Made by a program: the position numbers and the translations under genes. A model generated the notes under the pieces. It did no database searches and was not told the DNA's origin. It saw only the letters and a list, made by a program, of their open reading frames with translations. DNA of 64,000 nucleotides from Thermoplasmata archaeon. Lineage in GTDB: Archaea; Thermoplasmatota; Thermoplasmata; GCA-020350865. Numbering within the stretch: the first letter of the stretch is position 1; every line of letters begins with the position of its first letter. Below, piece by piece: positions 3,580 through 63,601 of this stretch. Where the stretch lies: the NCBI GenBank assembly GCA_020348445.1, contig CP070751.1:615901-679900 (forward strand), written 5' to 3'.

Positions 3580-4202
3580 CAGAGTTTTGGAATGAGCTGT
3601 TGACAAAGGCAAGCTGGAAAAAACTCCAAGAACTAACCAATGAATTTGAATTCATCCTCATAGGCGGTTGGGCGATATTCATATGGACTAAAAAACACAA
3701 GTCCAAGGACATCGATATTGTCGTTGATTACGAAATCCTCTCCGAAATACAGGAAAGATATCCTTTAACAAAAAATAATAGATTGAAAAAATATGAGGTA
3801 AAATTTGATGAATTTGATATTGATATTTATCTACCATATTATTCAAAATTGGCCATTCCAATTGAGGACTTGAAAGAACTCTCTGTAAAAGTTCAAGGTA
3901 TAAGAACGGTTGCTCTTGAAGCATTGCTTATTCTCAAGCAAGCAGCTGAAATAGAGCGAAGAAATAGTGTTAAGGGTCAGAAGGATAGTATAGATATTTT
4001 AACTATCCTGATACACGGTGGCATTGATTTGAACAAATACAATGAAATGCTTGTTAAGTACGACCTTGGAAATTATGTAAATGAACTTATTTTTGTAATA
4101 CAGAGTTTTGATAAGAAGAATCTGAGATATATTGATTTGAATCTCAAGAAGTTTGCCGACTGGAAAAAAGGATATATTAAAAAACTTAGAAAGCTGAAAT
4201 AG
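3576..4202 (+). CDS. AbiEii/DUF1814-like minimal nucleotidyltransferase toxin (putative)
   Basis: The track ORF 3516..4202 is trimmed to the ATG at 3576, which overlaps the upstream stop by 4 nt. NTase signature ILIGGWAIFIW(x8)SKDIDIVV (GG...DxD), then a second acidic motif DEFDIDIY. Confidence 0.6.
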   Translation: MTEFWNELLTKASWKKLQELTNEFEFILIGGWAIFIWTKKHKSKDIDIVVDYEILSEIQERYPLTKNNRLKKYEVKFDEFDIDIYLPYYSKLAIPIEDLKELSVKVQGIRTVALEALLILKQAAEIERRNSVKGQKDSIDILTILIHGGIDLNKYNEMLVKYDLGNYVNELIFVIQSFDKKNLRYIDLNLKKFADWKKGYIKKLRKLK

Positions 4203-4290: not shown

Positions 4291-7200
4291 CTGATTGATC
4301 CTCAGGTGGCAGTGTTTGTGGTCCCTCTTCAGATATAATTTGGTCTCCTTCAAAATCCTCAGGTATTGTCTGTGTTTCCTCATCAGACACAATCTGATCT
4401 TCTTCAAGATTCTCAGGCGGTGAAGTTGGTGGTCCCTCTTCGGTTACAGGCTCAACCTCTTCCGGTATCACAGGCTCCTTCTTCCAGGGTTTAAGTAAAA
4501 ACATTACCACGACAATAATTATTATGATAACAATAATCAAGATCAGCCACATGTAATTCTCCTCCTCCCCCTCATCTTCCTCCTCCTCTGCAATTTTTAT
4601 CATAATCAAAGAGTCTGTGGTAAGAGTATTATGCTGCCCTGCGGTTACAGGCAAACCTATAATAGTCTTGTCTTGATAACCAGTCTTCTCCGCCTTAAGA
4701 TCATAGGTTCCCGCAGGTATGTTTGATATCGTGAAATCTCCATTTTCGTCAGTTGTAGCAGAATAAGTTATCCCAACCAATGTCACCGTCGCACCCGAGA
4801 TTGGTTCGCCATCCTCATCTTTTACTGTCCCAGATATTGAACCAGTTGTCACAGCTGAGCTGACATTCACCCACATTGTGTCTGAATCTTTGTTCCCTGC
4901 TTCATCTGTGACGTTTAAAGTAACTAAATAATCACCCGGGGCAATGAATCTGTATGTTGAATTCACACCTTCAAGTGTTATCAGATCTCCATCTGTAAAA
5001 GTCCATGTGTATTTTAAATGCTGGAAATTATCAGTTGTGCCGCTTCCATCAAAAGTCACGGTTGTCTCTGGCGGAACTTGTTGATCAAATCCTGCATTTG
5101 CACGTGGTGGAGTTACATCGTAACCGCAAATTGCCTTAGCAGTTGTGGCTGTTTCTTCGTTAGTGGCCTTATCGATTGCGATGGTGTAGAGCTCATAGTA
5201 AGCCTCAGCGTGCGGAAAGTCGAAGATCCACTCCCAGGGAGTCTGTGTATCCACTCCAAAGGTGACATCGGTACTCCAAGTCAAGTTATTATTGCTGTAT
5301 CTGTAGAACAATTCCACACTTACCATTTTACTGTCCAGCTCCTTAACGGCAGCACTTATTATAATTGGTGATGTGGTCTGCCAGTAAGGAATGATTCTGC
5401 TAATCTCTGAATAGGGTATCTGTGTATCATATCCGCATATTGCATCTGTTCCTGTATCTGTTTCAACATTACCTGCGGAATCTGTAGCAATTGATTTGAG
5501 TTCATAATATCTTTCACTCTCGGGGAAATCGAATATCCATTCCCAAGGGCTTGTAGTATCTGTTCCAGCTGTCTCCCATTCACTCCAGGATTGGTTTACA
5601 GGACTGTATCGATACAACAACTCAACACTTTCTACACTGCTTCCTATGTCTGAAGCGGTGGCGGAAATAGTAACTTGCCCAGTATTGTTCCAGTATGGTG
5701 AGATCAGATCAACACTTGAAGCGGGTAATGTGGTATCTATTATTATTGTTGCAAAGGCATCTGATGTGAGGTTGAAATTATAATTCTCATCCCTGGCATA
5801 GACATAGATATCGTAGCTACCATCTCCCCATCCCGCGGTGCTAATAGAAATATTGACAGATTCGGTTGGTGTATCAAGTGCACCATCAGAGGGATCCAAA
5901 TCGGTCCCTGGCCAGTTCTGAGAACCGATAGTATAATTCGCACCAGTAATATTCGCGCCACCGGTTGAGGAATCATCGATGGTTGCGGTCAGTGTAACAG
6001 TTGTCCCCTCTATTACAGTAACAGAAGGCAATCCATCTACAAGTACATTGGTAATCTCTGGTGGTCTTATATCCACGGGATTCACAAGTGGATAACAATC
6101 CTCTGCCCCTGCCGGGCCATTTATGAAATAAGAAACATCAACAATTCCATAAGGTGGATTATCATCTGGTGTCGTCCAATCTGCCCACCAATTGCCTTTG
6201 GTTTCATAATACCAATAGTTATAGTCACCGTCATCGTATGCCTGAACATTCAAGGGGTTATAAACATCCGTGCTTCCCCTATTATAGGCTATGTTGTTAT
6301 GATAGATATTGTTGTAGTAAGAGGATGTAATAAAAACAGCGTAATCGTGGCAATTAAAGATATCGTTTAAGATGATGCTGTTGTTGTTAGAATTGTCGAA
6401 GATATAGATGCCGCGTGCATCAGTGCCGATGGCTTTAATGGTGTTGCCTGTTAGATTGTTATAATTCGAATATGACGTTATCCTAATGCCGTATCCGGAC
6501 GAATTAGTAGTAAATATTGTGTTGCTTGTTAGATTGTTACTCGAAGATGAAGATATCCCAATGCCACGACCATACTCCCCAGAAGTGTTTATTGTGTTAC
6601 CTGTTAGATTGTTGTTATTCGAATAATCAGATAAATCAATACCGTACCCATACTGCCCAGATGTATTTATTGTGTTGTCTGATAGAATGTTTTTCGTAGA
6701 TGAAGATAGATAAATGCCGTCTCCATTCTGCCCAGATGTATTTATTGTGTTGCCTGTTAGAGTGTTATTCGAAGAATAAGATAGCCTAATACCAAAACCA
6801 TACAGCCGAGATGTATTTATTGTGTTGGCTATTAGATTGTTATTATTTGAAGAGAGTTTTATACTAATGCCGTGCCCATACTCCTCAGCAGTATCTATAA
6901 TATTTTCTGTCAAAGTATTATTCGAAGATGTAACAAGATAAATGCCGGACCCAGCATATCCAGAGGTATTTATTGTATTGCTTTTTAGAATATTGTTATT
7001 CGAAGAGTCATTTAGGTAAAAGCCATACCCATCCTGTCCAGATGTATTTATAATGTTTCCTATTATAGTATTATCATTCGAATAAGGAAATAAATAAATG
7101 CCGTAACTGTCTTCTCCAGAGGTATTGATAAAGTTGTTTTTTATATTATTGTCATTTGAGGAATAATACAGATAAATGCCAATTGCCGATTGGTTTTGAG

Positions 7201-8095: not shown

Positions 8096-8275
8096 ACCGA
8101 CCCTCCAATGACCCTTGAATGTGTTTGGTTTTAATTTATTTTTTGGTTATATAATTTCTTTTAAGAGATGCCAGAATGGATGGTAAATCCACACTTCTGA
8201 GGGAATAACTCACTTCCCCTCAAAGCTCTTAACAAGCTTCGCCCATTCAGTAGTATATTCCTTCCTCTCGATGTC
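8012..8275 (-). repeat. Duplicated module, copy B (parental): end of intact OFOR-beta gene + promoter/5'UTR + first ~28 codons of adhesin B
   Basis: See 2620..2880; the 38-nt identity covers 8211..8248. Confidence 0.85.
8147..8154 (-). promoter_or_regulatory. Candidate TATA box of adhesin paralog B
   Basis: TTATATAA 52 nt upstream of the ATG at 8095, with GGAGGG SD-like purines before the start. Confidence 0.4.
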
Positions 8276-9052
8276 CTGCAATTCCCCAATCAAAATCTTC
8301 TTGTTCTCACCTTTCTGCTTATCAGACAGAAGCTTCCACTTGCTGTTTACGATGGTATTTGCCTTGTACCAGTCCCAGGCTTCCTTTGCGATCCTCTGCT
8401 TGTTCTTCCTGCCGTAACCAGTTGGGCAGGGTACCAGTGTTTCAATAAATGCAAATCCTTTCTTCTTCAATCCTTTTTTAATGGATCCAACTGTCTCATA
8501 AGGATAACCCATGGGCCACCGTGCAACATATGGTGCACCAGAGATTATGGCAAGCTCGGATAGATCAAAAGGCTCTTCTATGTTTCTGTAGGGCGTCGTG
8601 GTCGTGAAATCTCCCAAAGGAGTTGTGGGCGAAACCTGACCTCCAGTCATGCCATAATTCCAGTTGTTGATCACGATAACTGTCATGTCAACATTCCTTC
8701 TTGCAGCGTGAATAAAATGGTTCCCCCCTATTCCAGCCAAATCCCCATCACCTGTAAATACTATCACATGCAAATCAGGACGGGCAACTTTTACACCTGT
8801 TGCAAATGCAATGGCTCTTCCATGGGTTGTGTGCAATCCGTCTGCATCTATGTAGCCAGGCATTCTTGAAGAGCACCCGATTCCCGAGCTGAAAACAACG
8901 TCATCGATGTTTATTTTGGATTCATCAATTGCACGGAGCGCATAGTTCAGAACATTACCTATCCCGCATCCCTGGCAGAAGATTGAAGGATACATGGTCT
9001 CCTCAAGATATTTTTCCCTAATAACCTTGGCCTTGTTAAACAAACTACACAC
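8210..9052 (-). CDS. 2-oxoacid:ferredoxin oxidoreductase, beta (TPP-binding) subunit, set 1
   Basis: 280 aa. FCQGCGIG near the N-terminus, TPP motif GDGDLAGIGGNH...NN.NYGMTGGQ. Overlaps the alpha gene by 8 nt. Confidence 0.9.
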   Translation of the reverse strand: MCSLFNKAKVIREKYLEETMYPSIFCQGCGIGNVLNYALRAIDESKINIDDVVFSSGIGCSSRMPGYIDADGLHTTHGRAIAFATGVKVARPDLHVIVFTGDGDLAGIGGNHFIHAARRNVDMTVIVINNWNYGMTGGQVSPTTPLGDFTTTTPYRNIEEPFDLSELAIISGAPYVARWPMGYPYETVGSIKKGLKKKGFAFIETLVPCPTGYGRKNKQRIAKEAWDWYKANTIVNSKWKLLSDKQKGENKKILIGELQDIERKEYTTEWAKLVKSFEGK

Positions 9053-10232
9053 CTCCTTTTACTGAATCCACAATCTCAGATGGAGAATGCATTTCACCAC
9101 CAGTCTTTGGAATGGACACGACATCACATTCTCCCCGACAAAATTCAGCAATTGGATGATTTATCTGCCCGAGATTCATCTCAGGAACAAATATAGAATC
9201 AACCTTCTTTGCCATGGCTTGGATTTCTTTAATGGGAAAAGGCCAAATGGTGATGAGCCTTAGAAAGTCGGTTTTTATTCCATCCTTCCTAAGCATTTTA
9301 ACTGCCCGCATCGAGCTTCTTGCAGAGATTCCATAACTTACCAGGCTAACCTTGCTTCCCTTCTGGTATCTCTTTTCCACCATCACGATTTTATCTCTGT
9401 CATCAGCGATTTTCTCGGACAGTCTTTTGATTAGGGCATGGTGTATGTTTTTGTCGTCGGTTGAAGGGAGGCCGTTCTCCTTGTGGGTTAGGCCTGTCAC
9501 GTATGTATGATAACCTGTTCCAAAATTCGCCATCTCAGGGATTTTATCCTTTCCTGCTTTAAAGGGTTTGTATTTCTCCTTGTCTTTTGAGGGTGTCTTC
9601 CTTTCAGTCAATCTCAAATCCTTTCTTTTGGGAATCACAACCTCCTCCCTCATGTGCCCCACATCACCATCAGTTAAAATGATCACTGGATTGCGATATT
9701 TTTCTGCAAGGTTGAAAGCAGTTATCATCAAATCTAGACTTTCCTGTGGAGAGTTGGGTGAAAGAGCAATTATCTCATGATCCCCGTGGGTTCCCCAGCG
9801 GGCTTGCATTACATCGCCCTGGGCAGCCTCTGTGGGCTGGCCTGTGGAAGGCCCCGAGCGCTGGACGTTAACGATCACACATGGAGTCTCTGTCATGCAA
9901 GCATATCCAATATTCTCCTGCATCAGGGAAAATCCGGGTCCAGATGTGGTGGTCATGGCCTTGGCTCCCGCCCAAGCTGCACCTATCACGGCCCCGATAC
10001 TTGCGATCTCATCCTCCATCTGGATACAGGCGCCGCCTATCTTGGGCATGATTCGGGCAAATATCTCTGCTGTCTCTGTTGCAGGTGTGATGGGGTATCC
10101 TGCAAAAAATCTGCAGCCAGCAAGCACGGCACCGTAAGCAACAGCAGTGTCGCCTTGTATGAACTGCTTCTGTTTTCCAAGTGCCTTTGTGACCTTGTTG
10201 TATTCCTCAGCTGATATCTCCTTTGCCTTCAC
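9045..10232 (-). CDS. 2-oxoacid:ferredoxin oxidoreductase, alpha subunit, set 1
   Basis: GDTAVAYGAVLAGCRFFAGYPITPATE, QMEDEIASIGAVIGA, RSGPSTGQPT. Start set to the GTG at 10232 (VKAKEIS), 4 nt after the gamma stop and behind GGGGTGA. The track's longer ATG at 10277 would overlap gamma by 41 nt. Confidence 0.85.
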   Translation of the reverse strand: MKAKEISAEEYNKVTKALGKQKQFIQGDTAVAYGAVLAGCRFFAGYPITPATETAEIFARIMPKIGGACIQMEDEIASIGAVIGAAWAGAKAMTTTSGPGFSLMQENIGYACMTETPCVIVNVQRSGPSTGQPTEAAQGDVMQARWGTHGDHEIIALSPNSPQESLDLMITAFNLAEKYRNPVIILTDGDVGHMREEVVIPKRKDLRLTERKTPSKDKEKYKPFKAGKDKIPEMANFGTGYHTYVTGLTHKENGLPSTDDKNIHHALIKRLSEKIADDRDKIVMVEKRYQKGSKVSLVSYGISARSSMRAVKMLRKDGIKTDFLRLITIWPFPIKEIQAMAKKVDSIFVPEMNLGQINHPIAEFCRGECDVVSIPKTGGEMHSPSEIVDSVKGGV

Positions 10233-10236
10233 TTTA

Positions 10237-10764
10237 TCACCCCTTCCCCTTCTTGCCAAGAGCGTAACCCTTCTCAAAGGCCTTCATATTGATCTTCTCT
10301 GTTCCCTTGGGAATGTTGTTTTTTATGGTCTCAACCATCTTCTTTTTTGGGATCATATCGATAACTGGTGTGAGGTAACCGAGCATCACGATATTGGCCA
10401 CGATCTTGCGACCAAGGGAATCTGCTGTCTTGGTGAATGGAACAAGTTTGGCATTCTTCACAGCTCCTTCAACTAAATCAGCATCCACAATTATCGCGGT
10501 ACTTTTCTTTATATCATCATGATATTTGTCATAGCCAGGTTGTGATAGAGCAACAAGAATATCGGCATCAACGACCCTTGGATAATCGATTTCGGAATCT
10601 GAGATAACAACTTCGGAACGGGCCGCACCTCCCCTTGACTCAGGACCATAGGATTGTGTCTGTACTGCTTTATGACCCGAGTTGATAGCGGCCTCACCAA
10701 GAATTCTTCCTGCAAGCACTATTCCCTGTCCTCCAAAACCGGCGATTCGAATTTCCTTTCTCAT
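10237..10764 (-). CDS. 2-oxoacid:ferredoxin oxidoreductase, gamma subunit, set 1
   Basis: 175 aa. IRIAGFGGQGIVLAG..LG.AA...G..AVQTQSYGPESRGGA is the typical gamma/PorG signature. Confidence 0.9.
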   Translation of the reverse strand: MRKEIRIAGFGGQGIVLAGRILGEAAINSGHKAVQTQSYGPESRGGAARSEVVISDSEIDYPRVVDADILVALSQPGYDKYHDDIKKSTAIIVDADLVEGAVKNAKLVPFTKTADSLGRKIVANIVMLGYLTPVIDMIPKKKMVETIKNNIPKGTEKINMKAFEKGYALGKKGKG

Positions 10765-11297
10765 TTTCTACCCTCCTTCAAGCCCAATTTATATCCTTCT
10801 TCAAAGGCCTTGATATTGAGGTTCTCTGTCCCTTTGGGAACATTATTTTTTATAGATTCCTTTACACCCTTTTTTGTAACGATTTTTGTGATGGCTGTCA
10901 CATAGCCAATCATGACCATGTTGCCGATGATCTTTCTACCGAATTTCTTGTATGCAATATCTGTTGCTGGAATGCCGTAGAATTTGAACTTTTTCACATC
11001 CTCGGGAAAAACCAAGTCAGAGTCGATGATCAAGGTCCCTCCCTTCTTTAACATTGGAATATATTTTTCAAATGCAGAATGTGACATGGACACGAGAACA
11101 TCGATTGCAGGTGGGGACAGTTCGTTTATGTTCTTGTCAGAGATTATGACATCGCTTCTGCAGGCACCACCCCGGGATTCGCTTCCATAGGACTGGGTCT
11201 GAATGGCATTGTTGCCATCCTTTATGGCAGCATTGCCCAATATGAATCCCGAAAGCACTATTCCCTGCCCACCGAATCCCGAGAAACGAATGTTCAT
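10761..11297 (-). CDS. 2-oxoacid:ferredoxin oxidoreductase, gamma subunit, set 2
   Basis: 178 aa. IRFSGFGGQGIVLSG...QTQSYGSESRGGA. 4-nt overlaps with both neighbours. Confidence 0.9.
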   Translation of the reverse strand: MNIRFSGFGGQGIVLSGFILGNAAIKDGNNAIQTQSYGSESRGGACRSDVIISDKNINELSPPAIDVLVSMSHSAFEKYIPMLKKGGTLIIDSDLVFPEDVKKFKFYGIPATDIAYKKFGRKIIGNMVMIGYVTAITKIVTKKGVKESIKNNVPKGTENLNIKAFEEGYKLGLKEGRK

Positions 11298-12097
11298 TTT
11301 CCTATCCTCTCCTGATTCAGTTTTCTGAGGCTCTCTGTGAATTCTGTCCTTTCTCTGTCCACGAATTTTCCGATCACAATCCTATCCTCAAGCTCCTTTT
11401 CACTTAGGTTTTTTACCTTTTCAATCTTTATAGCCTTCTCCTTGAACATGTTCAGGTAATCCTGCCCCTCCCTCATTCCGATTTTTCTTCCATGTGCCAC
11501 AGGGCAGGGGGAGAGTATCTCAATAAAGGAAAATCCTTTCTTTTTAAATGCGTTCTGCATGGATTCCATCAAGGGGAAGACATTATATGTCGTCCACCTG
11601 GCAACATAGCTTGCTCCTGCTGCAGCAACAAGCTCCGCAATTTTCATGGGGTGCTCGATGTTCTTGTAGGGTGTGGTTGTGGTGGGATGTCCCATTGGGG
11701 TTGTTGGAGAAACCTGGCCTCCAGTCATGCCATAGATATAATTGTTAACAAGAAAGACAGAGATATCGAGATTTCTTCGGGCAGAATGTATGAGATGATT
11801 GCCGCCAATGCCTGCAATGTCTCCATCTCCTGCGATAACCACGACATCCATGTCTGGCTTCATTATTTTCACACCAGTTGCAAAGGCAAGGGGTCTTCCA
11901 TGGGTTGTGTGCAGTGTATCGCATTTGAGGTATGGTGAGGGAATCCAGGAAGAGCATCCGATACCAGTTACTGAAACTATGTTCTCTGGGTTCAAGCCAA
12001 GCTCATCTATTGCATGGGCATAGCAGTTGAGGACTGTTCCGCAACCGCAGCCCGAGCAGAATTTTGTGGGAAAGATCTCCTCCCTTAGATACTTCAT
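11294..12097 (-). CDS. 2-oxoacid:ferredoxin oxidoreductase, beta subunit, set 2
   Basis: 267 aa. FCSGCGCG, GDGDIAGIGGNH, NNYIYGMTGGQVSPTTP. Confidence 0.9.
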   Translation of the reverse strand: MKYLREEIFPTKFCSGCGCGTVLNCYAHAIDELGLNPENIVSVTGIGCSSWIPSPYLKCDTLHTTHGRPLAFATGVKIMKPDMDVVVIAGDGDIAGIGGNHLIHSARRNLDISVFLVNNYIYGMTGGQVSPTTPMGHPTTTTPYKNIEHPMKIAELVAAAGASYVARWTTYNVFPLMESMQNAFKKKGFSFIEILSPCPVAHGRKIGMREGQDYLNMFKEKAIKIEKVKNLSEKELEDRIVIGKFVDRERTEFTESLRKLNQERIGK

Positions 12098-12120
12098 GAG
12101 CCTGTGCTTGTGCTTATCCG

Positions 12121-13266
12121 TTAGACCACCTCTTTGATTTTTGCATATATTTCGTCTATGGAATGGACAATGCCCCCGATTTTTGGAACTGAGATTACCT
12201 CACAGTCCACGAACCTCTCAATCTCTCGGGAGATCTGGCCAAGGTTCATCTCTGGGACTAAAATTGTGTCCACCTGTTTTCCCAATTCTGTGATCTGCTT
12301 CCTTGCAAAGGGCCAAATTGTAATGAACCTGAAGAAGCCCACCTTCTTCTTGTTCCTTCGGGCCCTTTCCACTGCTCCCAGGCTGGGCCTTGCAGATGCA
12401 CCATATGAAACCACGGCCACTTTTGCATTCTTCATGTGTTTTTTCTCTATCCTGACTATCTTCTCCCTGTTTGTCTCTATCTTTTTATAAATCCTAGTTA
12501 TTAGCTCCTCGTGAACCTCCTGAGACTCCACGTCCCTCATACCGCTTGTCTTGTGGGTTGAGCCTGTGACATGAATGAAACCTCCCCGTCCGAACTCCAT
12601 CATGGGCGGGATGAGTTGTCCACCAAAAACCGATTTATTATCCTTGGCCTTTGGTCTTTTAACAATTTTAACATCCTTTAGTTTGGGCATTACCATCTTT
12701 TCCCTAAGATGGCCGATTTCACCGTCGGTAAGAAGTATCACGGGAGTGCGGTAAATCTCAGAGAGATTGAAGCAATCTATCATCAAATCAAAGCATTCCT
12801 GAACCGAGGACGGTGCGAGGGCTATAATCTCATGATCCCCGTGGGTTCCCCATCGGGCCTGCATCACATCCCCCTGAGCAGGCTTCGTGGCCTGGCCTGT
12901 GGAGGGTCCTGAGCGCTGCACATCCACGATAACACATGGGGTTTCAGTCATTACAGCGTAGCCGATATTCTCCTGCATCAGAGAGAAGCCAGGGCCTGAT
13001 GTGGCTGTCATGGCCTTTCCCCCTGCCCATGCCGCACCTATCACGGCACCGATACTCGCGATCTCGTCCTCAAACTGGACATAATAACCATTTACATTGG
13101 GAAGCAACCTTGCAATTAACTCGGCAACCTCAGAGGCGGGGGTGATAGGATAACCCCCAAAAAAATTACATCGGGCAAACAAGGCTCCGTAGGCAACAGC
13201 CTCATCTCCAAGTATGAAAAAAGTCTTTCCTTCGAACTTTTTAAGGTAATTTTCGTAATAATCCAT
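12121..13266 (-). CDS. 2-oxoacid:ferredoxin oxidoreductase, alpha subunit, set 2
   Basis: 381 aa. GDEAVAYGALFARCNFFGGYPITPASE, FEDEIASIGAVIGAAWAG, RSGPSTGQATK. Confidence 0.9.
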   Translation of the reverse strand: MDYYENYLKKFEGKTFFILGDEAVAYGALFARCNFFGGYPITPASEVAELIARLLPNVNGYYVQFEDEIASIGAVIGAAWAGGKAMTATSGPGFSLMQENIGYAVMTETPCVIVDVQRSGPSTGQATKPAQGDVMQARWGTHGDHEIIALAPSSVQECFDLMIDCFNLSEIYRTPVILLTDGEIGHLREKMVMPKLKDVKIVKRPKAKDNKSVFGGQLIPPMMEFGRGGFIHVTGSTHKTSGMRDVESQEVHEELITRIYKKIETNREKIVRIEKKHMKNAKVAVVSYGASARPSLGAVERARRNKKKVGFFRFITIWPFARKQITELGKQVDTILVPEMNLGQISREIERFVDCEVISVPKIGGIVHSIDEIYAKIKEVV

Positions 13267-28658: not shown

Positions 28659-28732
28659 GGGCCTATAGCTTAGACTGGTGGAGCGCCCGGCTGATAACCG
28701 GGAGGTCGAGAGTTCAAATCTCTCTAGGCCCA
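28659..28732 (+). tRNA. tRNA-Ile (anticodon GAU), no intron, CCA not encoded
   Basis: GGGCCTA TA GCTT AGACTGGTGG AGCG C CCGGC TGATAAC CGGGA GGTC GAGAG TTCAAAT CTCTC TAGGCCC A gives a clean cloverleaf. Confidence 0.95.
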
Positions 28733-28757
28733 CTTACCTTTTATATTAAATTGATTC

Positions 28758-28823
28758 GTGGGCCTATTGATGTTCGAGTTATGCTAGAGATCGCTAAGTC
28801 TTAAGCTCGAACATCTCTAGGCC
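28758..28823. repeat. Foldback element A1 (tRNA-acceptor-mimic hairpin)
   Basis: GTGGGCCTA TT GATGTTCGAG [27-nt loop TTATGCTAGAGATCGCTAAGTCTTAAG] CTCGAACATC TC TAGGCC. The 10-bp inner stem is perfect, and the outer 6 bp equal the tRNA-Ile acceptor stem. Confidence 0.85.
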
Positions 28824-28888
28824 ATAAATTAAGGATGGTGTTCTGAGCATCTCTAGGCCTCTGGTTATCAATTCAATCAAATTAATAC

Positions 28889-28956
28889 GTGGGCCTATTG
28901 ACGCTCAGGTTATGCTAGAGGTTGCTATTTCTTAAACCTGAGCATCTCTAGGCCCA
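28889..28956. repeat. Foldback element A2
   Basis: GTGGGCCTA TT GACGCTCAGG [TTATGCTAGAGGTTGCTATTTCTTAAA] CCTGAGCATC TC TAGGCCCA. Three inner-stem base pairs differ from A1 on both arms in a compensated way. Confidence 0.85.
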
Positions 28957-29293
28957 CAAGAATTAAGAATGGTGTGCTGAGCATCTCTAGGCCCCCAAGA
29001 ATTAAGAATGGCGTGCTGAGCATCTCTAGGCCCTTGGTTATCTAAAGACATGAATAAGCCCCCTCCGAAAAATATATAAAGGGGGAGCAGATATATAATA
29101 GGGACAGCCGAAAAAGCATAACAACACTACTTTCAGAGAGGCAGTGTGAGATAGCCTGCCAAACTGTTTAGGGGCGGAGCTACAAGGATTATCGAATATC
29201 TATTCGAGTTGTTAAATCACTGCTCTCATGTTGAGTACATAGGGTTTCTGATTTAAATCAGAAAGCGAATTCGTGCTAAAAGGAGGTTAAAAT

Positions 29294-29482
29294 ATGTCAA
29301 TATTAGCTCCAGCAAAGATGAGGCTATGGATTGAACTGTGGAAGGAGGAAGTGATGGCCTCGATTCCAAAAGAAGAATTACAGCAAAAATTTCAAGGTAA
29401 GCAGATTAAAAAAGGACGAATGCCCACTAAGCCACCCGAGAAGATCCAAGCTAAACTCGAGGGAGGAGGCCAAGTTTTGTAG
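29294..29482 (+). CDS. Small Lys-rich hypothetical protein (62 aa)
   Basis: Strong SD AAAGGAGGT 7 nt upstream of the ATG. No recognisable domain. Lies upstream of the KamA-family gene. Confidence 0.45.
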   Translation: MSILAPAKMRLWIELWKEEVMASIPKEELQQKFQGKQIKKGRMPTKPPEKIQAKLEGGGQVL

Positions 29483-52213: not shown

Positions 52214-52249
52214 GTGGAGGGCACCCCGTCCAGATTTATTTTGATCTAT

Positions 52250-52316
52250 CGTCTTAGTGTTCGAGTTATAATTTTTCATCAATTGTTTCTTAAGCTCGAA
52301 CACTAGACGGGAGCAC
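52250..52316. repeat. Foldback element G1, same family as 28758..28823, adjacent to tRNA-Glu
   Basis: CGTCTTAGTGTTCGAG [TTATAATTTTTCATCAATTGTTTCTTAAG] CTCGAACACTAGACGGGAGCAC. The core TGTTCGAG-TTAT...CTTAAG-CTCGAACA is shared with A1. The terminal GACGGGAGCAC is identical to the 3' end of tRNA-Glu, in inverted orientation. Confidence 0.8.
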
Positions 52317-52340
52317 GAATCAAATAAAAAATAATATAAG

Positions 52341-52489
52341 TGCTCCCGTCGGGATTTCCGAGCCGTGGGAGGAAATGGAGTGGTGAGTCCCTCACCACGG
52401 GCATTCGAACCCGAGTCGTCGGCTGTCCTTGGCAATTTTAGGAAAGCCTCGAAAGGCCGAAATGATTGGCCGGTCTACACTACGGGAGC
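52341..52489 (-). tRNA. tRNA-Glu (anticodon UUC) with two inferred introns (canonical 37/38 and T-loop)
   Basis: Revcomp reads GCTCCCG TA GTGT AGACCGGCCAA TCAT T TCGGC CTTTCG [25 nt: AGGCTTTCCTAAAATTGCCAAGGAC] A GCCGA CGAC TCGGG TTCGAAT-[49-nt insert within a 56-nt loop region] CCCGA CGGGAGC A. The exon parts match the canonical archaeal tRNA-Glu layout. Confidence 0.8.
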
Positions 52490-59147: not shown

Positions 59148-59270
59148 GGCTGACGGCGATCCCTGCTTCCCATGGGCTCGCGCACCATAGTACAACAGGG
59201 AACGCTGGTGGACTTAACTTCTGGGTTCGGAATGAGACCAGGTGTAGCCCCACCGCTATGGCCGTCATAC
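59148..59270 (-). rRNA. rrf: 5S ribosomal RNA (unlinked to 16S/23S in this window)
   Basis: Revcomp reads ..ATGACGGCCATAGCGGTGGGGCTACACCTGGTCTCATTCCGAACCCAGAAGTTAAGTCCACCAGCGTTCC...GGGAAGCAGGGATCGCCGTCAG.., with helix I TGACGGC/GCCGTCA. TATA-like CTATAAATAAA lies ~35 nt upstream. Ends are +/- 3 nt. Confidence 0.9.
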
Positions 59271-63452: not shown

Positions 63453-63601
63453 GGGCCTGTGGTGTAGCAATCCAGGCAGGAAACTGCTTGGACTGCAGTG
63501 GATATCACTGGGGCCTCCGGAATCCCTTTTTATGGATGGGGTGAGCCCCAATCCCGGGTTCAAATTGTGTCATTGGGCACATGAAAATCCCGGCAGGCCC
63601 G
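63453..63601 (+). tRNA. tRNA-Arg (anticodon CCG) with three inferred introns (D-loop, 37/38, T-loop)
   Basis: GGGCCTG TG GTGT AGC[30 nt: AATCCAGGCAGGAAACTGCTTGGACTGCAG]TGGATA TCAC T GGGGC CTCCGG[23 nt: AATCCCTTTTTATGGATGGGGTG]A GCCCC AATC CCGGG TTCAAAT[23 nt] CCCGG CAGGCCC G. The exons give a 73-nt cloverleaf. Exact splice points are ambiguous by a few nt. Confidence 0.72.

Follow-up and report, generated by a model that had tools for sequence, protein, structure and literature searches.

Twin-hairpin units behind tRNA genes of Thermoplasmata: a possible non-autonomous, site-specific mobile element

The foldback sequence behind the tRNA-Glu gene of the window, that is, of the whole 64-kb stretch of DNA that was analysed, is one of about 50 units of the same architecture, which were found in several metagenomes and in no fewer than six Thermoplasmata/Methanomassiliicoccales genomes and always stand either immediately downstream of a tRNA gene or within a tandem array that follows such a gene. 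The observation is confirmed as real and far beyond chance. We give a probability of roughly 45% to the reading that the family is a non-autonomous, site-specific twin-hairpin mobile element of a clade of large-genome Thermoplasmata, with the window copy as one of its members.

As the window tRNA-Glu gene was missed by both ARAGORN and Rfam, it was read by eye and aligned with its orthologues at L002, L011 and L014, which are poorer in introns and lack the T-loop intron. One intron of the window gene follows the anticodon loop, while the other, of about 49 nt, lies in the T-loop at about 52402-52354; the T-stem 3' strand occupies 52353-52349, the acceptor 3' strand 52348-52342 and A73 position 52341. 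The features of the locus are the following:

52341..52489, minus strand: tRNA-Glu(TTC), 149 nt, with two introns
52341..52353, minus strand: X, the last 13 nt of the gene, from the T-stem 3' strand through the acceptor 3' strand to the discriminator
52317..52340, minus strand: AT-rich 24-nt trailer CTTATATTATTTTTTATTTGATTC with a T6 run, the loop of the left hairpin
52306..52316, minus strand: left arm GTGCTCCCGTC, reverse complement of the tRNA 3' end extended by one base into the trailer
52255..52305, minus strand: conserved core hairpin with stems TAGTGTTCGAG / CTCGAACACTA
52243..52254, minus strand: X'', the distal copy AGACGATAGATC at the canonical spot just past the hairpin, badly decayed
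52220..52231, minus strand: second degenerate copy of the tRNA-Glu 3' end, GACGGGGTGCC over this span and GACGGGGTGC at 52230-52221

The left arm (52316-52306) and GACGGGAGCAC (52350-52340), which comprises the acceptor 3' strand, A73 and the first trailer base, form an inverted-repeat pair that is 100% complementary over 11 nt, thus confirming the original prediction that the arm complements the tRNA 3' end. The core stems pair at 11/11 positions and enclose a loop of 29 nt (52266-52294) with the ends TTAT and TCTTAAG. The loop had also been described as inverted relative to tRNA-Glu, and the covariance model agreed, returning 65.5 bits on the plus strand versus 20.6 on the tRNA strand (minus); in nearly all the remaining loci, unlike the window Glu locus, loop and tRNA are co-oriented. 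The degenerate direct copy that had been noticed beyond the hairpin does exist at 52230-52221, the canonical X'' site being however at 52254-52243, where the sequence is decayed at window Glu and intact in L002, L011 and L014. By analogy with the tRNA-Ile array and L021, the copy at 52220..52231 probably closes a partial unit that has decayed. The trailer is a probable replacement transcription terminator, and the copy as a whole is probably inactive, because its loop is flipped and its distal arm decayed.

A sister array was found behind tRNA-Ile in the same window:

28659..28732, plus strand: tRNA-Ile(GAT), the host gene, called by ARAGORN/Rfam
28733..28823, plus strand: unit 1 (covariance model, 50.5 bits)
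28861..28957, plus strand: unit 2, with its core at 28901-28945 (covariance model, 43.2 bits)
28824..29033, plus strand: span of three interleaved partial units (28824-28860, 28958-28994 and 28995-29033)

Unit 1 has a 25-nt trailer, the left arm GTGGGCCTA (28758-28766), the core hairpin (28770-28814) and the direct copy ATCTCTAGGCC, and the stem of unit 2 has diverged from it by three compensatory changes (GCTCAGG/CCTGAGC). Every partial unit of this array terminates in ..CTGAGC ATCTCTAGGCC(C), and a comparable one is kept at the tRNA-Ile of CP070739 (L030).

The core GTTCGAG..CTCGAAC, whose stems directly flank the loop, occurs exactly twice in the 64-kb window (28772-28812 and 52259-52301) versus 0 expected from 100 shuffles, which bears out the claims that the Glu and Ile elements are one family and share the same hairpin core with its TTAT loop end. 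The covariance model gave three matches in the window, the Glu hairpin and the two Ile hairpins, and no further copy; tRNA-Arg (63453-63601), which had been reported to have no such element, carries none by either window inspection or the covariance model. Homology of the two trailers had been proposed through TTGATTCGTG. This motif is indeed exact at both loci, but it is short and by itself not significant: with one mismatch it gave 4 matches in the window versus 5.1 expected, and its GTG is merely the complement of C72-A73 and the first trailer base.

Outside the window, loci were examined as sequence pieces of up to 10 kb. Exact matches to the core pattern numbered 27 beyond those of the window, all at tRNA ends, and with the core-only pattern 14/14 genome loci and 13/13 metagenome loci were at tRNA 3' ends; the covariance model returned 47 matches in 211 kb of loci, all inside tRNA-3' arrays. 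The original prediction had named copies away from tRNAs, or with flanks not matching the neighbouring tRNA, as evidence against it; all of the about 50 copies are behind tRNAs, with matching flanks. Eleven isoacceptors were identified among the hosts (Ile, Glu-TTC, Glu-CTC, Trp, Ala, Gly-TCC, Gly-CCC, Pro-TGG, Pro-GGG, His and Tyr). One core design occupies no fewer than 14 distinct tRNA 3' ends. A single fixed attP cannot account for the pattern, as had been argued. Besides the window tRNA-Arg, the first tRNA-Gly in L004 has no element.

The unit measures about 100 nt, contains no ORF and has a constant order, namely X, trailer, reverse complement of X plus 1-4 trailer bases, hairpin and direct copy X'', with a spacer of 2-5 nt between left arm and hairpin. 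Trailers are AT-rich and mostly 24-25 nt long (range about 18-30), and most of them carry a T4-T7 run, as would be expected of a replacement archaeal terminator. The conserved hairpin has a stem of 9-11 bp and a loop of 27-29 nt with TTAT at one end and TCTTAAG at the other; neither TTAT nor TCTTAA varies among the 43 cores, orthologues recognised by synteny only being included. The proposal that a conserved core and trailer layout is joined to arms fitting the adjacent tRNA was upheld by arm-match scores at 22 loci, the mean local alignment score being 8.7 against the own tRNA and 3.9 against other tRNAs for the left arm, and 10.5 versus 4.3 for the right arm. In L002, L005, L006, L012, L015 and L018 the left arm pairs with X and 1-4 bases of the trailer rather than with the sequence flanking X'', which makes X, trailer and left arm a single co-evolving hairpin. 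As the left arm tracks the genomic bases 1-4 nt past A73 and no CCA, it is not tuned to the mature tRNA.

In the core stem, 97.5% of the cells are paired and 9/11 pairs have changed on both sides, with G-U intermediates almost absent, a pattern of covariation that suits a DNA palindrome better than an RNA helix. Two adjacent hairpins were predicted in 3/3 cognate modules tested (z = -4.6 to -6.9), and the non-cognate L008 module gave the same fold weakly (z = -2.6; 3/200 shuffles equally good).

The element had been said to copy whichever tRNA it follows. This holds in that the arms usually fit their host, and fails at three informative loci (L004, L005 and L008, from two metagenome-assembled genomes only), where they misfit the tRNA body ahead. 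Both L005 and L008 carry a foreign 3' end on a tRNA-Pro body exactly past the T-loop, with the gene's own 3' end beyond the hairpin. At L008 a module of the Trp type, which over X, trailer and left arm agrees with the tRNA-Trp unit of L001 at 44/49 positions, follows a tRNA-Pro-like body immediately past ..TTCAAAT, and the own tRNA-Pro end CTCGGCGGCCCA, which has lost one base, stands after ..CTCGAACA; L005 has the same arrangement with a perfect tRNA-Pro end CTGGGCGGCCCCA past the hairpin. Each of these two loci has an intact second tRNA-Pro a short way downstream, and L004 shows a nested arrangement. The L005 and L008 junctions thus indicate that both the 3' end and the terminator come with the unit, and that the exchange falls at tRNA position 60|61. 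Insertion always follows ..TTCRAAT, read on the sense strand of the tRNA, at exact junctions that show no duplication. Since the flanking tRNA-end copies differ in L005, L008 and L004, the repeats represent donor and target and not a target-site duplication of the MITE or casposon type, and a casposon-derived MITE was ruled out by the same mismatched loci. Off-target choice through partial arm-target pairing was also considered and rejected, as L005 pairs at 6/11 positions by eye and L008 gave no clear match. The mismatched loci may instead reflect ectopic gene conversion between element copies.

Unit number varies at the orthologous tRNA-Ile locus, where 1, 2, 3 or 2+3 units are present depending on the genome. 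Arrays of 2-5 units were seen, trailers are near-identical inside single arrays (L032 and L008), and the loop has flipped independently three times (window Glu, L017 and L026), in agreement with the suggestion that it can flip between the inverted arms. On sequence grounds, variable unit number, near-identical trailers and loop flips suggest ongoing recombination. The tRNA-Ile units share a common 27-nt loop type across four or five genomes, and units at one tRNA are closer across genera than to units at other tRNAs, which indicates long residence and mostly vertical descent, so that host-level selection could also explain this conservation, a point against the mobile-element reading. With X, trailer and inverted copy evolving jointly, the tailoring shows as old tRNA-specific sublineages.

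As a mobile element, the module would run from its own 3' end X_e (13 nt) through a trailer of about 24 nt with a T run, the reverse complement of X_e plus 1-4 trailer bases and a spacer to the hairpin, and joining of the module ends would give a rod or dumbbell. We infer that the module moves as a unit through a single-stranded or folded intermediate, with a trans-acting enzyme and with the left arm as a guide. Entry would be a precise, duplication-free exchange between tRNA 60|61 (T-loop | T-stem 3' strand) and the element junction ...GAACA | X_e; as the T-loop and the ..GAACA junction are not identical, a classical double-strand overlap region of a tyrosine recombinase is argued against. 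After entry, the tRNA body would run into X_e and the terminator of the element, and the resident end would be pushed past the hairpin as X''. At the window Glu locus, X would be the first part of the inserted module, with 60|61 taken as the exchange point on the strength of L005 and L008. Where X_e equals the resident end, the tRNA would stay intact and the insertion harmless; where it differs, the gene would be broken and the insertion would persist solely where the tRNA copy is redundant. Tandem arrays would arise by repeated exchange at junctions of one kind, and exchange between inverted stem halves would flip the loop. By analogy, HUH/Y1 'peel-and-paste' transposition has a matching topology, and so has tyrosine recombination on folded ssDNA of the CTX/attC type. 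Against the mobile-element reading, it gives no account of how a lineage moves to a new tRNA.

A further point against mobility is that no recombinase or transposase gene was found near any copy and none could be linked with the family; up to 8 kb from the units, no recombinase family recurs. When 395 ORFs from 27 loci were clustered in search of a recombinase by association, syntenic housekeeping families alone were returned; the neighbours of the units are housekeeping genes that differ from locus to locus, and twenty window proteins examined are all metabolic or chaperone genes. The Pfam tables of the genes around four tRNA-Ile loci and the window contained no tyrosine or serine integrase. 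A viral master copy was rejected with 0 matches in viral contigs, and among the loci examined we saw no empty site, excised form or autonomous master copy.

Several features of the units recur in known systems. SSV-type and pNOB8-type archaeal integrases and P4-like islands likewise insert in the 3' part of tRNA genes, carry a spare 3' segment that leaves the gene intact, keep the displaced end as a direct repeat and stack serially; a replacement 3' end with the displaced original as a direct repeat is found here at the L005 and L008 junctions and as X/X'' at cognate loci. Such integrative elements, however, span kilobases and have their own integrase and one fixed attP per tRNA, whereas the present units have about 100 nt, no gene, an inverted att copy, a conserved hairpin and at least 14 tRNA ends for one design. 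IS200/IS605 elements and their PATEs, which are non-autonomous, carry a hairpin at each end, insert on a fixed strand 3' of a brief conserved target without duplicating it, close their right end in a short conserved motif and pair a hairpin-foot sequence with the target or cleavage site; imperfect palindromes at both ends and strand-specific, duplication-free insertion were likewise found here. Their guide pairing involves 4-5 nt and is partly Watson-Crick, compared with a Watson-Crick complement of 11-15 nt in our units, which moreover have their target inside a tRNA gene mended by the 3' end of the element; no TnpA could be tied to them in the loci examined, of up to 10 kb each. CTX attP(+) and integron attC resemble the units in a folded hairpin site that mimics the target duplex, in conserved structure with variable sequence and in tandem arrays, as seen here in the covarying stems and in the 2-5 units at one site. 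They differ in that the units lack an Xer/dif or IntI context, their arms copy the tRNA end, and exchange takes place at the border of two helices and not inside an overlap region of 6-8 bp; the stems, GTTCGAG/CTCGAAC, fit neither the consensus nor the position of the attC core (R''/R', RYYYAAC / GTTRRRY).

Casposons are reportedly Cas1-driven transposons at tRNA 3' ends in relatives of the Thermoplasmata, and the units share with them the host group, the tRNA 3'-end target and a repeated segment of about 14 nt. Casposons have true target-site duplications, terminal inverted repeats and a casposase. In the units, the flanking copies can differ (L005, L008) and the ends are not mutual inverted repeats: the left end X_e (CCCAGTG..) and the right end ..CTCGAACA do not form the terminal inverted repeats of a MITE, the inverted repeats of the unit being internal. 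No Cas1-like casposase or family B polymerase was found, as the units have no ORF and their neighbours are housekeeping genes. Non-canonical archaeal T-loop introns, finally, are alike in inserting at about 60|61 in the same genomes and in a 3' end resembling the T-loop; unlike them, the units show no bulge-helix-bulge by inspection and place a full spare 3' exon with terminator first, so that the gene works without splicing.

Base-pairing-programmed insertion is a speculative proposal, which we consider unlikely: a left-arm guide of 11-15 nt would choose the target, the hairpin would recruit a trans-acting single-strand nuclease/ligase or recombinase, and the spare 3' exon with terminator would be the price of entry. 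Swapping the two arms would retarget the element, thus placing one design on at least 14 tRNA ends, and decayed copies would seed T-loop introns. We also regard as unlikely a host-selected cis-element of tRNA loci acting at the RNA level, in which read-through transcripts would fold in one of two ways: the left arm would pair with the acceptor 3' strand and so hide the RNase Z site, or it would pair with X'' and form a long hairpin whose base mimics the cognate acceptor stem. Its role could be in processing, quality control or regulation, or it could be a tRNA-acceptor-mimic small RNA. The element is indeed kept at orthologous tRNA-Ile, Glu, Trp and His loci where the neighbouring PmbA is only 63-75% identical and trailers and flanks have diverged, TTAT/TCTTAA is invariant in the 43 cores, both alternative folds are predicted to be stable, and the hairpin base equals the acceptor stem of the neighbouring tRNA. 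However, the T4-T7 runs should stop archaeal transcription ahead of the hairpin, stem changes are nearly all from Watson-Crick to Watson-Crick, and the left arm pairs genomic bases beyond A73, not the processed end. Moreover, loop flips, varying unit number, partial units and arm-mismatched units fit poorly with a tuned RNA, some tRNAs do without the element, and Rfam 15 gave just weak, chance-level miRNA/snoRNA matches (E >= 0.08). Other candidates were rejected: a trailer promoter driving a hairpin small RNA, as only about 15 nt separate the centre of the TATA-like run from the arm downstream, too little for an archaeal promoter; a C/D-box guide RNA, suggested by CTGA and TGATG-like strings of the Ile array, as the tRNA match is on the wrong side of the putative D box and Rfam gave no support; and a T-loop-mimicking left stem serving as second guide, as variants such as GCTCAGG are unlike the T-loop of their own tRNA.

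An intron-like or proto-intron element moving through RNA is quite improbable in our judgement. In read-through pre-tRNA the splicing endonuclease would cut at 60|61 and before X'', the product would circularise, reverse-splice into other tRNAs and be copied back into DNA, and decayed copies would turn into the T-loop introns that this lineage commonly has. Position 60|61 is the site of bona fide T-loop introns in the window tRNA-Glu, the window tRNA-Arg and the L009 tRNA; that of tRNA-Glu is missing in its orthologues, its end GCTCGGAAAT resembles the right stem of the element, and its start, judged by eye only, weakly resembles the 3' exon. Removal of the unit from the L005 transcript would restore a perfect tRNA-Pro, and a published model ties integration of mobile genetic elements to the gain of archaeal tRNA introns (PMC3293823). 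Nevertheless, manual inspection allowed no bulge-helix-bulge across the two junctions: the 3' junction permits the T-stem, a bulge of 2-3 nt and a helix of 3-4 bp (TTCG/CGAA), and past the 5' junction no helix forms, X_e being taken up by the left arm, the strand due to pair with the start of X_e being the TCTTAAG loop end. The Arg and L009 introns are unlike the element, a reverse transcription step would be required that has no support, and the displaced end of L008 is short of one base, so that splicing would give an abnormal acceptor stem. Leftover att sites from integration, excision and deletion cycles of integrative viruses or plasmids are very improbable as well; direct 3'-end repeats, 3'-end replacement and serial arrays are the classic signature of tRNA integrases, but ordinary scars show neither a fixed size of about 100 nt nor a twin hairpin with an inverted att copy, the same core is found at no fewer than 14 tRNA ends in several genera, and neither an integrase or element body beside the about 50 units nor a match in viral contigs was found. 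Chance likeness of AT-rich trailers with fortuitous palindromes, which the original prediction had itself raised, has a negligible probability: the 10-mer TTGATTCGTG alone is not significant, but the shuffles, the 27 further matches at tRNA ends, the strong covariation and the arm specificity exclude such an origin.

A full-text literature search found no account of such an element, which is not proof that it is undescribed, and standard annotation (ARAGORN, Rfam) misses both the units and the adjoining multi-intron tRNAs. Should the role instead be one for the host, the units would represent a new class of tRNA-linked cis-element or acceptor-stem mimic. If the mobile-element reading is true, the family would be the smallest known element targeting tRNA genes, with its specificity in two short arms and not in a protein-bound attP, and would exemplify natural nucleic-acid-guided, retargetable insertion, a principle known from IS608 guides and IS110 bridge RNAs. 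Insertion inside an essential gene would be free of cost through the replacement 3' end and terminator. The family would also offer a testable route for two old puzzles of archaeal tRNA biology, namely why mobile DNA prefers tRNA genes as landing sites and how introns at non-canonical positions such as the T-loop are gained.

A foldback behind tRNA-Glu, with arms matching that tRNA, had been described in the original prediction, and every detail of it was confirmed in the sequence. Only tRNA-Ile and the 5S rRNA were called in the window by ARAGORN and Rfam, and tRNA-Glu and tRNA-Arg were missed by both. The features of the locus, of which A73, the trailer and the two end copies were located by sequence reading, are as follows, together with tRNA-Ile:

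28659-28732, plus strand: tRNA-Ile, called by ARAGORN and Rfam
52489-52341, minus strand: tRNA-Glu(TTC) with two introns, read from the minus-strand sequence
52341, minus strand: A73 of tRNA-Glu
52340-52317, minus strand: AT-rich trailer of 24 nt with a T6 run
52316-52306, minus strand: left arm GTGCTCCCGTC, fully complementary to the final 10 nt of tRNA-Glu plus the first trailer base
52305-52255, minus strand: hairpin TAGTGTTCGAG / CTCGAACACTA, an inverted-repeat pair with a loop of 29 nt
52254-52243, minus strand: decayed copy of the tRNA-Glu end
52230-52221, minus strand: second, degenerate copy of the tRNA-Glu end

The core GTTCGAG..CTCGAAC occurred in the window only behind tRNA-Glu and tRNA-Ile, with 0 occurrences expected from shuffles. 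The TTGATTC-GTG junction, proposed as an identical element of the two trailers, is indeed present but loses its special status, as C72, A73 and the first trailer base together simply have GTG as their complement and, taken alone, the 10-mer does not reach significance. The T-loop intron of tRNA-Glu measures about 49 nt (52354-52402, minus strand) and is absent from the orthologous tRNA-Glu of three other genomes (L002, L011 and L014). T-loop introns were also observed in the tRNA-Arg gene (63453-63601, plus strand) and at locus L009, all at about the border between T-loop and T-stem 3' strand (60|61), which is also the exchange site of the hairpin element. The 5S rRNA gene (59148-59269, minus strand, 99.8 bits) is solitary: in the window, neither a 16S nor a 23S rRNA gene adjoins it.

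A pattern search based on the core and loop ends only returned 14 loci in four Thermoplasmata/Methanomassiliicoccales MAGs and a further 13 in metagenome contigs, with no match in viral contigs. All loci shared one layout: first the 3' end of the tRNA (X), then a trailer usually 24-25 nt long (about 18-30 overall), a left arm that is the reverse complement of X, a hairpin, AC or AT, and X'', a direct copy of the T-stem 3' strand and acceptor 3' strand. The host tRNAs identified were Trp, Glu-TTC, Glu-CTC, Ala, Gly-TCC, Gly-CCC, Pro-TGG, Pro-GGG, His, Tyr and Ile, several intron-rich neighbouring tRNAs standing outside this list, and at least 14 different tRNA 3' ends are served by the family. 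Both arms matched their own tRNA much better than other tRNAs (mean local alignment score, left 8.7 vs 3.9; right 10.5 vs 4.3). A covariance model trained on 43 cores was run alongside a relaxed search, and units with other stems (GCTCAGG, GTTCAAG, CTTCAAG, CCTCAGG) were recovered. With filters off, the model gave three matches in the 64 kb window, all already-known copies; in 211 kb of loci it gave 47 matches, every one within a tRNA-3' array. A sequence-independent test for X / rc(X) / X triples recovered tRNA-linked units, including two with divergent cores, together with a few scattered non-tRNA matches. The tRNA-copying claim had been staked on copies lying next to tRNAs with flanks that match them, and it withstood this check, because all model matches fell in tRNA-3' arrays and the non-tRNA triples were few and chance-like in appearance.

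The core stem was 97.5% paired, exceeding all controls, and both sides had changed in 9 of the 11 pairs. Of the 11 pairs, 7 were partly pre-selected by the search, which biases the result at those positions. Since these changes were nearly all from Watson-Crick to Watson-Crick pairs, with G-U very rare, a DNA palindrome fits the core stem better than an RNA helix. The loop (27-29 nt) has invariant ends, TTAT and TCTTAA, and a moderately conserved apical ACAT(C/T)AAT. Folding of the module, X through right stem, predicted two adjacent hairpins, the former made of X and the left arm with the trailer as loop, the latter being the core hairpin, with z of -4.6 to -6.9 in the three cognate modules tested and the same fold, weakly (z -2.6), in the non-cognate module of L008. 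The left arm pairs with X and 1-4 trailer bases: a trailer starting with T faces an arm starting with A (L002, L005, L006), TC is matched by GA in L012 and L018, four trailer bases are matched in L015, and no complementarity to the flank of X'' was found. X, trailer and left arm thus co-evolve as a single module that is copied at genome level and is not tuned to the mature CCA end. Between left arm and core hairpin, the tRNA-Ile unit of L030 (CP070739.1, 7527-7578) carries an extra palindrome, GTGCTCTTC..GAAGAGCAC, which may be a second small palindromic insertion within the element.

Loci at which unit and tRNA disagree proved decisive. At L005 the T-loop of a tRNA-Pro(TGG) body leads straight into a foreign end, CTCGGCGCTCGCA, complemented by the left arm, and a perfect tRNA-Pro end, CTGGGCGGCCCCA, comes directly after ..CTCGAACA. 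At L008 a tRNA-Pro(GGG)-like body continues, beyond ..TTCAAAT, into a Trp-type module. Compared with the tRNA-Trp unit of another genome, this module shows identities of 44/49 over X, trailer and left arm and of 37/39 over the hairpin; the gene's own 3' end sits after the hairpin. L004 is nested, hairpin 1 being followed by a foreign end and hairpin 2 by the tRNA's own. These three loci show that a tRNA end, a trailer and an inverted copy belong to the unit itself. The exchange, read from junctions in two MAGs only, appears to be reciprocal and to leave no duplication, with exact joins at tRNA 60|61 and at ..GAACA|X_e, the junction of the element, X_e being the end brought by the element. Misassembly is unlikely because the sequence shared at the junctions (about 10-16 nt) is shorter than assembly k-mers. 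About 100-200 nt downstream, L005 and L008 each have a second tRNA-Pro that is intact and has a cognate unit of its own, and mismatched insertions last only where the tRNA is redundant. The tRNA-Pro genes are tandem duplicates (L005 5960-6290; L008 4770-5145), and every copy has a promoter-like AAAAAGGTATAA box of its own. The upstream gene is a chimera ending in a foreign 3' end; the downstream one is intact and carries a cognate element array. Odd tRNA-like segments (GGGATTTGAACCTTAGAGGAAAGG ... CCTTTCC ... GGTCGAATCCC..) after an element or another tRNA, at L004 (about 3610-3760, minus strand) and L006 (about 6290-6440, minus strand), may represent tRNA genes that are permuted, split or heavily interrupted by introns.

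The loop was inverted relative to the tRNA at three independent loci (tRNA-Glu in the window, L017 and L026; L025 is identical in sequence to L017), the outcome that recombination between inverted stem halves would be expected to give. One arm was degraded in 3/3 flipped copies, so the tRNA-Glu copy of the window is probably dead.

The best-supported reading of the observed architecture, tRNA linkage, junctions, arrays and flips, with a probability of roughly 0.45, is that the family is a non-autonomous site-specific mobile element. Joining of the element ends would give a rod or dumbbell whose ..GAACA|X_e mimics the T-loop|X junction of a tRNA, and exchange there would produce exactly the integrated order seen; each X'' preceded by a right stem would be a new target, generating arrays, and the flips would be explained as well. 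Cognate insertions would be harmless because the element brings along a spare 3' end together with a T-run terminator. The unit would move as a whole through a single-stranded intermediate guided by the left arm, and hairpin-templated conversion may re-tailor it. No recombinase was found among the neighbouring genes of the loci examined.

The main rival, a host RNA function through pairing with the acceptor 3' strand or mimicry of the acceptor stem, is supported by the deep conservation but sits poorly with the trailer terminators, the near-absence of G-U pairs, the loop flips, the varying copy number and the mismatched units, and we regard it as unlikely. True T-loop introns at the same tRNA position in these genomes lend something to an intron-like mobile unit acting at the RNA level; no bulge-helix-bulge motif could be drawn, and this reading appears improbable. 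Ordinary att scars fit poorly and are less probable still, and chance similarity, also a poor fit, can be practically dismissed.

In the mobile element reading the topology is the one known from IS200/IS605 "peel-and-paste": each end has a hairpin, insertion takes place 3' of a short motif without duplication and on one strand only, and a foot-of-hairpin sequence pairs with the target. The IS200/IS605 PATEs share structure and topology with the family. Folded single-strand recombination (CTX phage, integron attC) matches the topology equally well. The family falls outside the definitions of MITEs, casposons, integrase-bearing elements, tRNA introns and attC sites, no Rfam family matched it and no description of such an element was found in the literature searched, the closest published idea being that archaeal tRNA genes are broken up, and introns created, when mobile elements integrate (PMC3293823). 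We rated its kind as site-specific, tRNA-targeting mobile DNA; that it represents a truly new base-pairing-programmed insertion system is doubtful.

Elsewhere in the window, a non-coding leader of about 190 nt (29095-29296, plus strand) precedes a conserved 62-aa ORF (29294-29482), which stands with a radical-SAM/KamA-like 598-aa gene downstream of it. Three other genomes share its conserved blocks CACTACTTT.., GCAGTGT, ..GCCT.. and ..CACTGCT.., with the strongest conservation in L028 and L032 and only a partial one in L031; in L028 the terminal hairpin of the leader is swapped for a different one. The leader, a candidate cis-regulatory RNA, had no Rfam match. At 8210-13266 (minus strand), alpha-like and beta-like genes of 2-oxoacid:ferredoxin oxidoreductase (POR_N/PFOR_II, TPP_enzyme_C) form two tandem pairs.

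Finally, orthologous tRNA-Ile loci were fetched via the neighbouring protein PmbA, independently of the element. The apparent source chromosome, a Thermoplasmata MAG of 5.16 Mb (100% PmbA match, P0001), is unusually large for its class, and relatives carrying the element have large genomes too (3.2 and 4.2 Mb). The window holds two full and three partial units at this locus, L028 two units, L031 (CP070672) one, L032 three with near-identical trailers, and L030 (CP070739) one diverged and one partial unit. Partial units, composed of a loop-like segment, right stem and tRNA end with neither trailer nor left arm, were observed at 28824-28860 and 28958-29033 of the window, at L030 7630-7670 and at L021 2510-2590. 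The window genome and CP070739 share a conserved Ile-type partial unit (..AATTAAGAATGGTGTGCTGAGC..), which may therefore be a module of its own. Arms, stems and loop ends are kept at tRNA-Ile across these genomes despite a PmbA identity of 63-75% and unalignable intergenic flanks, and the Ile units have their own 27-nt loop type. The elements have therefore long resided at each tRNA, undergoing local expansion and contraction, and switching between tRNAs is rare.
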